This document shows, in pieces, positions 1 through 3,022 of a DNA stretch of 3,022 nt. Both the position numbers and the translations under genes were made by a program. A model generated the notes under the pieces. That model was given only the letters and a program-made list of their open reading frames with translations. It did no database searches and was not told the origin of the DNA. The DNA is taken from IMG/VR virus record IMGVR_UViG_2531839435_000013. The stretch is one strand, 5' to 3'. Origin of the DNA: a virus. Its lineage: Duplodnaviria > Heunggongvirae > Uroviricota > Caudoviricetes. Position 1 is the first letter of the stretch. Every line of letters begins with the position of its first letter.

Positions 1-1020
1 CTACTTACTGACCACAAGCGGTAAATCCAGTGTTGGTGTGATTTTTGTTTTACGATCGTAAATCAACACCTGATTTTCTGTTTTGTGTCCACTGAAAATT
101 TGTTTGTCGCGACTGCTGCCTTCGTAATCTGAAATCCCTTTGGCTTTTATGTCATGGAAGTTGCACCCAAACGGAACGTCGGCTTTTTGCTCGGCTGCAC
201 GTTTGGCCTGATTCCACCAGTTGTTCAGTGTCTTAGCTATGACCTTCCCGCCTTTGGTTGTGTTGATCACATACTCGCATGTGCCGGAAGATACATTTCG
301 GGCTAACTGGATCGCCGTACGTAATCGTGGAGACCATTCCTTGATTTGTTTGGTGCCGGTCTTGTTTTGCTCAATGTAAATCCCTTTGTCCATAATATCC
401 TGCCATTTCAGCTCGAACACATCACCGAGCCTTGCCGCACAGAGATAGGATATCTCCATTGCAATACGTAACTGTGGAATTGCTTCCGCATATATCGCAG
501 CATACTGTTCATCGGTGATGTAAACGGTACGGGCTTTAAGCGTGAATTTTCTGACCCCTTTGCATGGATTATTTTTCACATACCCACGCTCATATCCCCA
601 TCCGTATACTCGACTCAGACTTGCCAGTTCATGGTTAGCCTGGGTCTTACTCTCAAGTCCCCGCTTATCCATGAAAATTCTTACCTGCTCAATTTTTACA
701 TTATCAGCAAGCACTTTTCCGAATACCGCCAACAATGCCCTTTGATGTTGCCGATAATCTTTTTGGGTTCGGGGGGCCAGTTCTGTAAATGCAGGGGAGT
801 CCATAAACATGTGCCATAATTTAGCTACAGTCATTATGTTGTGGAGTTTTGCTTTTTCCAGCTCATAATTTTGCCAGACTTTAGCTACGCTGGTTTCCCG
901 CAATCTTCCGAGCCCTATAGTTCTTGTGCTTCCTTCGGGTTTCCATACGTAACTGTAACCATTCGATCTAACTCGCGGTGGTAGTGCATTATCTTTTTTG
1001 TTTTTTCTTGGTCTTCCCAT
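1..1020 (-). CDS. int: Tyrosine-type site-specific recombinase (lambda-family phage integrase), complete, 339 aa
   Basis: Minus-strand ORF with ATG at 1020..1018 and TAG stop at 3..1. The N-terminus MGRPRKNKKDNALPPRVRSNGYSYVWKPEGSTRTIGLG resembles the lambda Int arm-binding N-terminus (MGRRRSHERRDLPP...FGLG, from memory). The C-terminal catalytic region is recognisable: Arg-I candidate R197 in AARLGDV (430..432), H289 in NFHDIKAKG (154..156), H312 in SGHK (85..87) and the nucleophile Y321 in LIYDRK (58..60), with lambda-like H-to-Y spacing. A GAGG about 10 nt upstream of the ATG could serve as RBS. The start overlaps the 3' end of the upstream xis-like ORF, as in lambda. Confidence 0.95.
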   Translation of the reverse strand: MGRPRKNKKDNALPPRVRSNGYSYVWKPEGSTRTIGLGRLRETSVAKVWQNYELEKAKLHNIMTVAKLWHMFMDSPAFTELAPRTQKDYRQHQRALLAVFGKVLADNVKIEQVRIFMDKRGLESKTQANHELASLSRVYGWGYERGYVKNNPCKGVRKFTLKARTVYITDEQYAAIYAEAIPQLRIAMEISYLCAARLGDVFELKWQDIMDKGIYIEQNKTGTKQIKEWSPRLRTAIQLARNVSSGTCEYVINTTKGGKVIAKTLNNWWNQAKRAAEQKADVPFGCNFHDIKAKGISDYEGSSRDKQIFSGHKTENQVLIYDRKTKITPTLDLPLVVSK

Positions 1021-1240
1021 TGTTCAGCGCCTCAAAATCGGGGTCAGCGGAAACCAGCTCAGGTGCTTTTGGCATCGTTGTCAGTCCGTGCGGAATATCC
1101 CTGCGAAGAACTATTGGTTCGTTTTTAGGACCGATTACAAATGGGATGCCGTGCAGCCTTAACTGGTGTTGTTGTTTTGTGTATCGCTTGTATTTCGTGA
1201 TCTCTTGAATCTCTGTTGGCGATAGCGTTAATTCGTACAT
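989..1240 (-). CDS. xis: Excisionase-like small basic protein (lambda Xis-like), 83 aa
   Basis: Minus-strand ORF with ATG at 1240..1238 and TAA at 991..989. It sits immediately upstream of int and overlaps it by 32 nt in another frame. The protein begins MYELTL (lambda Xis begins MYLTL, from memory), has a Pro/Gly-containing middle (IPFVIGPKNEP) and a lysine-rich C-terminal tail (GKTKKKQKR), as lambda Xis does. No strong Shine-Dalgarno is visible upstream. An in-frame stop at 1273..1271 rules out a longer N-terminus. Confidence 0.75.
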   Translation of the reverse strand: MYELTLSPTEIQEITKYKRYTKQQHQLRLHGIPFVIGPKNEPIVLRRDIPHGLTTMPKAPELVSADPDFEALNNGKTKKKQKR

Positions 1241-1306
1241 GTGGTCACGCGTCTTACAGCATGACCGCCGTCAATATAATTCGGAGACGGCGATCAGGGG
1301 TGAACA

Positions 1307-3022
1307 TTAAAAATCAACCGGATTCGGGATCAGTTTTTGCCAGATTGCTGAAACGTATTTTGCCTGGTAACGGGCGTCATCAAGTGCATTATGGCGCTCA
1401 CCTTCGAATGGAATAGCCGTTCTGGCATCGAAGTCTATGGCTTTCCCCAGCTCAACGATTGTGCGTACATCGCGATCGTTGTAGTAACGCCACGGGCAGG
1501 GGATCCCCTGCCGTTCGTATGAACGGCGCAAAATCGTGTTGTCGAAGTTGGCTCCATTTCCCCAGACCTGAACAAAAAATTCGCCGGAGTTTTCGTCGAT
1601 AAATTCCCGCAATTGTAACAGTGCATCATCTAACGGGATTTCATCGGTCATAATGGCAGATTGCGCCTCGCGTGATTGCTTAAGCCACCATTTAATGGTG
1701 TCACGATCAATGACTCCGCCAGCAGTTTCCAGATCGATAGTCTTACTAAATTCCGGTCCCATATCTCCGGTTTGCGGATCGAAAAATATTGCACCTATTG
1801 AGATGATCGGGGCATCAGGATTTTTTCCCATGGTTTCAAGGTCGATCATTAGATGGTCACACGTCCTGCTGGTGGATGTGATTTCGTGATGACCGTTCAC
1901 CTTAATTGGGTGATCTGCCGTCTCGCCAGTTTCATTATCGCTATTGTGATGCTGATTGCCGCCAGTGTTCTCCTTGTGTGGATGTTCAGCGCCTTCCATT
2001 TCCTCCGGATCATCTTCCTGAACTTCAACCTGGTTCTTGTCATCGAATGTTTCCTGGTATGTTGCGTCGCCCATCACCGCGCCACAATCAGGGCAGTTGC
2101 CGCCGCCGGTCTGACCGCAGGCGGTGCAGATTTTTTCCGGTTCCTGTTGCACTACTGGTTCAGGTTGTTTCGTTTCTGGCTCGTTTTGTTGCGTATTTGG
2201 GCTGTTTTGTTCCGCTTTCTGGTCGTTCTGTTCCGTTTCATGCTGGTTCTGGTTCACAGAATCGCGGGTCTGGAGCCCCTTAACCCATTTCGGATCATTC
2301 GGGTCGCTAATCCCTTCAACAAATTCACCACGTGATGCAGCAAGCAACTTATCGGCGTCAGGCTGGCTGATATTGGCTGCCTGCATAATTTTGTTTACTT
2401 CGTCAGCGGTAACTTTTATCGGCTCTGGTTGTTCTGAATCTTCAGCGGTATCTACATTTTGTTGTGAACCTGAGTATGTACTGTTTTTGCGGGCGAAATA
2501 TTCTTCTTTCGTGATTTCAGTAGCCCCGGCAGCCAGCGCCTTATCCAGACCAGAAAGTTTGTTTGCGCGACCGTATTTTTCGCCATCCTTATCTGCGAAG
2601 AGGAAATAGAACGGCCCCTCACGCTCTACAGATGGTTCGACTTCCACTTTGCATTCGGTTTTTTCGTTGTCCGGAATTGCCGTTTCCACTGCATCAGTTT
2701 CTGGTACTGGCGACGAGAGAGTATCAGTTGCGCTCTGATTTGTTCCTTCATCTTCAAACACGCCCTTTGTAGTCAGGTATTCAGTAATGTATTTGTTCAG
2801 TGCCACGGATCTTTGTGAATGTCGATCGGACGTCACGGACAAGGCCAAAAATAGTTGGCGGTCGTAGCGAAGGGCATCAGGCTGTTTGCGCATGATGCCG
2901 AGATACGCTTCCAGTCTTCGCGGTCGTTGTCGATAACTTCTTTTTTGCCCAGCGATGGATGCTGCCGTCAATGTTTCCGGCATCCACATCACCAGGCCAG
3001 AGAGCGTAGGCCAGTTCGTCAT
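1307..3022 (-). CDS. RecE-like protein with C-terminal DnaQ-like DEDDh 3'-5' exonuclease domain (often annotated as exodeoxyribonuclease VIII in lambdoid prophages); 5' end at window edge, true start uncertain
   Basis: A 571-codon minus-strand ORF ending at TAA 1309..1307. The C-terminal domain (about aa 388-571, nt 1310..1861) carries the three DEDDh motifs: Exo I in LMIDLETMG (D394 at 1841..1843, E396 at 1835..1837), Exo II in [11 protein letters not shown] (D494 at 1541..1543), Exo III in [11 protein letters not shown] (H544 at 1391..1393, D549 at 1376..1378). The central region ([25 protein letters not shown] ... [28 protein letters not shown] ... [10 protein letters not shown]) matches, from memory, the central part of E. 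coli RecE from the Rac prophage. The ORF begins with ATG exactly at the window edge, so the real gene may extend upstream (see findings). Confidence 0.85.
2129..2260 (-). repeat. Imperfect tandem repeats of about 21 bp inside the exonuclease gene, encoding a Q/E/N/P-rich low-complexity linker
   Basis: Plus strand 2178..2243 shows three similar units (ggctcgttttgttgcgtattt / gggctgttttgttccgctttct / ggtcgttctgttccgtttcatg). On the minus strand they translate to [43 protein letters not shown] (aa 255-297). This lies directly upstream of the CxxC-x7-CxxC motif. Confidence 0.5.

Follow-up and report, generated by a model that had tools for sequence, protein, structure and literature searches.

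Lysine in place of the second catalytic arginine in a clade of lambda-type prophage integrases

We analysed a 3022-base stretch of viral DNA (IMG/VR record IMGVR_UViG_2531839435_000013, Caudoviricetes), referred to here as the window, whose gene int (1..1020, minus strand; stop codon 1..3, ATG 1018..1020) encodes a 339-amino-acid lambda-type tyrosine integrase. At the position of the second catalytic arginine (Arg-II), in the box with the pattern H-x-x-R, this protein carries a lysine, K292. Very probably it is a functional heterobivalent lambda-type integrase of a lambdoid prophage at serT/yccA, in which lysine has replaced Arg-II through a substitution that arose once. What carries this reading is the identity of the residue, its conservation, the selection acting on the gene, the fold of the protein, and the documented ability of close relatives to excise and to form lysogens in vivo. 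An earlier sequence-only reading had noticed the lysine and offered three explanations for it: a divergent integrase subfamily, a compensating basic residue such as R304, or an inactivated integrase in a decaying prophage.

K292 (codon AAA, 145..147; all int codons lie on the minus strand) can be assigned to the Arg-II column because three independent alignments agree. A phmmer comparison with lambda Int in the Protein Data Bank (PDB; 1z1b_A, E = 7.8e-18) paired 'nfhdikakg' of the window protein with 'tFHELRsls' at high posterior probabilities. A MAFFT alignment with lambda Int and arginine-bearing relatives placed FHD[IL]K-AK over FHD[IL]R-AK without gaps, and a hidden Markov model built exclusively from 28 arginine-bearing sequences (27 relatives and lambda Int) matched FHDIKAKG of the window to the model string FhDlRaka with maximal posterior probability. 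Both the residue and the codon named in the sequence-only reading are therefore correct, and translation together with the alignment with lambda Int also bears out the other catalytic residues that it listed. These are Arg-I, R197 (AGG, 430..432; lambda R212), which is invariant among close homologues; the box II histidine H289 (CAT, 154..156; lambda H308); H312 (CAC, 85..87; lambda H333) at the His-II/III position; and the nucleophilic tyrosine Y321 (TAC, 58..60; lambda Y342). Also in register are D200 (421..423; lambda D215), the acidic residue that follows Arg-I in the R-x-x-D/E pattern, and K220 (AAG, 361..363), the catalytic lysine of the beta2-beta3 hairpin, whose surrounding NKTGTK aligns with SKTGVK around lambda K235. 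K220 is invariant both in the alignment of close homologues (122/122) and in a wider alignment (118/118), while H312 is kept in 119 and Y321 in 118 of the 122 sequences of the former.

Its profile match, its fold and six of its seven active-site residues place the protein in the tyrosine recombinase superfamily; Arg-II is the sole defining feature in which it departs. It matches the Pfam family PF00589 (Phage_integrase) over residues 168-323 with 33.9 bits against a gathering cut-off of 27.1, and NCBIfam holds no specific model for this integrase family, its sole match being XerC below threshold. The lysine is neither a chance occurrence nor a sequencing slip, since it recurs in every close homologue cluster, and three relatives sequenced independently also encode it by AAA. 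The resulting active site, R-K-H-K-H-Y, is conserved throughout a group of prophage integrases that is common in enterobacteria.

The extent of this conservation was assessed at two depths. A search of 5.8 billion proteins yielded 120 cluster representatives with 55-96% identity to the window integrase, from Escherichia, Citrobacter, Klebsiella, Salmonella, Cronobacter, Dickeya, Sodalis and others, and all 120 carry lysine in the aligned column 292, which answers the call of the sequence-only reading to inspect this column in close homologues. A HMMER search run exhaustively over 1.84 billion cluster representatives returned 4324 relatives; among the best 150 of these, 116 representatives at 50% clustering were near full length (about 29-54% identity) and made up the wider alignment. 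Here column 292 is occupied by lysine in 88 sequences and by arginine in 27 (lambda Int excluded), with a single glycine and a single asparagine. The lysine-bearing sequences share the motif FHD[IL]KAKG[IV]SD[FY], while the arginine-bearing sister group reads FHD[IL]RAKxxTD. In a neighbour-joining tree computed after masking column 292, with lambda Int as the outgroup, every lysine-bearing sequence falls within one clade of 96 tips, and parsimony assigns arginine to the root. Nested inside this clade is a six-member arginine-bearing subclade that has T-G in box I again, which may represent a reversion or a misplacement by the neighbour-joining method. The tree and alignments suggest a single origin of the arginine-to-lysine change, at depth within a large clade of integrases from gammaproteobacterial phages, with purifying selection holding it since; the substitution is thus old and stably inherited. 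A single A-to-G transition, from AAA to AGA, would restore arginine, so that the retention of lysine in all of the close clusters does not stem from mutational inaccessibility. With lysine also in 88 of the 116 wider representatives, and essentially confined to one clade, the suggestion of a divergent integrase subfamily is supported.

Some of the arginine-bearing relatives depart from the canonical site elsewhere, with arginine in place of the box II histidine (F-R-D-[IL]-R for F-H-D-[IL]-R). Carriers of this motif are Pseudomonas phage Ostro (L005) and the cluster representatives P0161, P0184, P0218, P0232, P0242 and P0254, and the motif is a further natural variation of the catalytic pentad within the same wider group.

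Within the wider alignment, the clearest separation of lysine-type from arginine-type sequences is given by residue 194, which precedes Arg-I by three positions (C194 in the window, 439..441) and where cysteine replaces the threonine of the usual T-G-x-R box I. Cys194 occurs in 79 of the 88 lysine-type sequences and Thr194 in 25 of the 28 arginine-type sequences (lambda Int included), and the combination of Arg292 with Cys194 was not found among these 88 and 28 sequences. The neighbouring glycine is lost as well, A195 (436..438) sitting in its place in the window, so that box I of the lysine clade reads C-A/R-x-R. Judged from this co-variation, the pairing of C194 with K292 may be compensatory.

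To ask whether int is maintained, we compared it with its relatives by pairwise Nei-Gojobori estimates. Against the integrase of phage Evi, the rate of synonymous substitution (dS) is 0.18 and that of nonsynonymous substitution (dN) 0.005 (dN/dS 0.028); against that of prophage Sp4 of Escherichia coli O157:H7 Sakai, dS is 0.36 and dN 0.017 (dN/dS 0.046). The gene is under strong purifying selection, and its open reading frame (ORF) is intact and equal in length to those of its relatives. DNA similar to positions 1..1300 of the window is present in 750 of 5426 complete Escherichia coli genomes. The int-xis DNA occupies 898 places in these 750 genomes, with at most four places per genome and three of the places on plasmids.

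Integrases of the lysine type are likewise found in phages. A tblastn search of 50,697 phage records, in which the motif HD[IL]KAKG was confirmed in each phage named here, identified Evi (98.8% identity), vB_EcoS-689R5, Stenotrophomonas phage BUCT709, Salmonella phage 118970_sal3, Pectobacterium phage ZF40 and Escherichia phage Fostie. Evi is a coliphage isolated from infant faeces (PMC10910852), and ZF40 is a temperate phage obtained from an induced lysogen (PMC3391216). Indirect evidence of activity comes from Sp4, whose integrase ECs_1055 is 96% identical to that of the window over 339 amino acids (12 differences) and has the same HDIKAKG motif, gene order and yccA-serT site, while the rest of the prophage differs. 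After mitomycin C treatment, attP junctions of circular Sp4 have been detected, along with Sp4 DNA in packaged form; Sp4 thus excises and circularises, although it is defective in several other functions, packaging genes included (Asadulghani et al., PMC2669165, where Sp14 is described alongside Sp4). The integrase of the window accordingly appears to be intact and functional rather than decaying.

The integration site points in the same direction. About 140 bp past the int stop, phage Evi and the prophages carry a 60-bp stretch that matches the 3' part of serT, the gene for tRNA-Ser (UGA), exactly; this stretch lies outside the window, as does attP, and its positions in the related sequences are L001 5800..5859, L002 5800..5859, L009 11098..11157 and L010 1389..1448. 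In Sakai, the repeat occurs at both ends of Sp4, with the far copy inside an intact serT, and a single copy beside int is present both in phage Evi and in E. coli strain FDAARGOS_1077. Since it is repeated at both ends of Sp4 and stands beside int in the free phage, the 60-bp segment marks the core of the attachment (att) site, with integration between yccA and serT. In both genomes examined, the int DNA of the prophage adjoins yccA, opposite serT. No tRNA gene was found between yccA and int, where just the 60-bp 3' fragment is located, the intact serT being at the far end of the prophage.

Directly upstream of int in the window, and overlapping its start by 32 nucleotides, is a gene in the position of xis (989..1240, minus strand). 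Its 83-amino-acid product matches Pfam PF13986 (DUF4224; E = 2.7e-11) and PHROG 1266, annotated 'excisionase', and does not belong to the lambda Xis family. A DUF4224 gene directly precedes int in six of six related phages checked, including the arginine-type Pseudomonas phage Ostro (L003 83..298; L004 74..301; L005 62..304; L006 98..301; L007 72..218; L008 73..297). This conserved position suggests that the DUF4224 protein is probably the recombination directionality factor of this integrase group. The Sp4 copy has been judged to be without DNA-binding motifs and probably non-functional (Asadulghani et al., PMC2669165). Mentions of DUF4224 in the literature are incidental, and the protein appears uncharacterised.

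An AlphaFold2 model of the integrase has a mean predicted local distance difference test (pLDDT) score of 80 and is confident for residues 4-298. The best Foldseek match in the PDB is full-length lambda Int (1z1b_A, E = 1.7e-16, 349 aligned columns), and the match probability is 1.00 to lambda Int, Tn1549 Int, XerA/D/H, IntI and Cre. At the N-terminus, the phmmer alignment with lambda Int begins at residue 1 (MGRxR..LPP), and the isolated arm-binding domain 1kjk gives a weak match (E = 0.18). Because the model best matches full-length lambda Int, the protein is a three-domain lambda-type integrase.

How might catalysis proceed with lysine at this position? In tyrosine recombinases, Arg-II donates hydrogen bonds both to a non-bridging oxygen of the scissile phosphate and to the tyrosine oxygen, and among about 12,000 family members the position is occupied by arginine in 99.1% and by lysine in 0.5% (Gibb et al. 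2010, PMC2943603). According to the same study, a lysine modelled at Arg-II can reach the phosphate, the Cre mutant R292K recombines with moderate activity, in vivo as well as in vitro, and builds up the covalent intermediate on account of a ligation defect, and the R223K mutant of vaccinia topoisomerase IB (TopIB) retains about 10% of activity. These values, together with the natural occurrence of lysine, make the statement of the sequence-only reading that arginine-to-lysine changes here are strongly deleterious an overstatement. For the window integrase, the chemistry would be standard: Y321 would attack the scissile phosphate with K220 as general acid, and R197 and the ammonium group of K292 would neutralise the non-bridging oxygens. 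If Cre R292K is a guide, the lysine would contact the phosphate and could not at the same time hydrogen-bond the tyrosine oxygen. Accompanying changes, C194-A195 in place of T-G before Arg-I for example, may have removed the need for the latter contact, and evolved lysine enzymes presumably carry second-site adaptations of this kind.

More speculatively, and with a rather low probability in our estimation, the lysine clade could embody a distinct catalytic solution, in which the arginine-to-lysine change is coupled to the remodelled box I and shifts the balance between cleavage and ligation, for instance through a longer-lived covalent intermediate, a property that would be exploited together with DUF4224 for the choice between integration and excision. 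If so, a widespread enterobacterial group would provide a natural model for dispensing with Arg-II.

Several points weigh against the view of a functional lysine-type integrase. In the AlphaFold2 model, residues 312-339, which include H312 and Y321, have pLDDT values below 50, and the assembled active site is unreliable; this low-confidence C-terminus resembles the C-terminal segment of lambda Int that carries the tyrosine and is mobile when no DNA is bound. The co-variation of C194 with K292 may reflect nothing but shared ancestry. The catalytic contribution of K292 and any compensation for the arginine are matters that we infer by analogy. Lastly, excision of Sp4 was seen only after mitomycin C, while the neighbouring Sp5 was amplifying Sp4 and in the presence of many other integrases, and it is conceivable, if unlikely, that one of these catalysed the excision in trans.

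Three alternatives would each account for the lysine in another way. One is that K292 is a bystander and that some other arginine folds into the Arg-II position, as has a precedent in IntDOT, where a downstream arginine functionally replaces the missing Arg-I (PMC8138268). Several arginines are indeed enriched in the lysine clade over the arginine clade (R232, 85% vs 22%; R145, 80% vs 26%; R114, 77% vs 30%), and R323, two residues after the tyrosine, is invariant in close homologues. R323 and likewise K294 were set aside as clade-specific compensators, being conserved but equally common in the arginine-bearing sister group. The substitute proposed in the sequence-only reading, R304 (CGC, 109..111), is rejected as well: it is arginine in 79 and lysine in 39 close homologues, and in the wider alignment the column is a gap in 81 of 118 sequences. 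K292, by contrast, is invariant; a bystander that a single mutation could turn into arginine would not be expected to be so, and the published modelling, with lysine at this position reaching the phosphate (PMC2943603), also speaks against a spectator role. We therefore consider this alternative improbable.

Less credible still is a catalytically dead or decaying integrase in a prophage that is a fixed remnant, the third of the earlier explanations. The near-universal conservation of Arg-II across tyrosine recombinases (PMC2943603) and the defects of Sp4 in other functions (PMC2669165) would fit such a state; a full-length ORF with dN/dS values of 0.03-0.05 and a lysine conserved in relatives down to about 30% identity would not. 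Moreover, integrases with the same lysine are carried by isolated temperate phages, Sp4 excises and circularises, and attP and attL/attR have the 60-bp serT core in common. The explanation is contradicted because close relatives with this lysine excise or live as temperate phages and the att signature is visible, the kind of evidence that the sequence-only reading had itself named as refuting. Least probable of all is co-option to a non-recombinase role, for example as a DNA-binding regulator in the manner of the tyrosine-recombinase-derived repressors YopR/MrpR and SroF. These proteins do appear among the weaker Foldseek matches (ranks 20 and 31-40), but the best structural matches are to lambda Int over its full length, the nucleophilic tyrosine and all other pentad residues are kept, and the gene stands at the prophage end beside an xis-like gene and the att core.

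A functional enzyme with lysine at Arg-II can be set against several known systems. Lambda Int (PDB 1z1b, 1z1g, 5j0n) shares with the window integrase the N-terminal arm-binding region with MGRxR...LPP, the core-binding and catalytic domains, the active-site residues R, D, K, H, H and Y in register, and an xis-like gene that overlaps the int start. It differs in sequence (about 25% identity), in having R311 where the window has lysine, and in box I (T-G-Q-R in lambda, C-A-A-R in the window). The two systems also differ in the partner protein, DUF4224 instead of lambda Xis, and in the target, the 3' end of serT with its 60-bp identity instead of lambda attB. Cre R292K and TopIB R223K have arginine exchanged for lysine at this very catalytic position and illustrate that lysine there supports cleavage and recombination (PMC2943603), yet they are single mutants of arginine-adapted enzymes, whereas the lysine in the window belongs to an evolved wild type with many co-varying positions. 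Natural departures from the pentad at the level of whole clades are known from active or presumed active recombinases, namely IntDOT of CTnDOT and the IntDes subgroup (PMC8138268), but there Arg-I is missing or shifted or the first histidine is affected, and not Arg-II.

In the literature searched, natural lysine at Arg-II is represented just by the 0.5% frequency (PMC2943603), with neither a description of a clade nor a functional study; a family-wide survey from 2021, which describes the RKHRH pentad as 'otherwise strictly preserved', is silent on it (PMC8138268). The surprise is nevertheless moderate, because the gene is an ordinary prophage integrase already annotated in hundreds of genomes and lysine is known to support catalysis. 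As a large and very probably functional clade, the lysine-type integrases offer a natural experiment on how far the bidentate arginine contact is essential, and could reveal which second-site changes compensate for its loss. Members are frequent in E. coli, O157 prophages with effector genes among them, and occur also in Salmonella, Klebsiella and Pectobacterium. Annotation rules or scores of prophage 'intactness' that demand an R-H-R-Y tetrad would miscall these integrases as defective.

As judged from the list of ORFs, three minus-strand genes fill the whole length of the window: int, the xis-like gene and an early exonuclease gene, which together make up one end of a lambdoid prophage. Integrase, xis-like and exonuclease genes are annotated in this order also in coliphage Evi, Sakai Sp4 and E. 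coli FDAARGOS_1077, the DNA of the last being 99.8% identical to the window. The third gene (1307..3022, minus strand) is an early-region neighbour that serves as context for the integrase and of which the 3' part is present, its ORF leaving the window at 3022; it matches Pfam PF16473 (Rv2179c-like, E = 1.1e-67). In relatives, this gene is about 2.47 kb long and annotated 'exodeoxyribonuclease VIII' or 'exonuclease'. Its C-terminal Rv2179c-like 3'-5' exonuclease domain of the DEDD type is encoded at 1340..1855, and ahead of this domain are a low-complexity stretch rich in Q, E and N and a zinc-ribbon-like sequence, CTACG...CPDCG (CxxC...CxxC), at 2081..2128.

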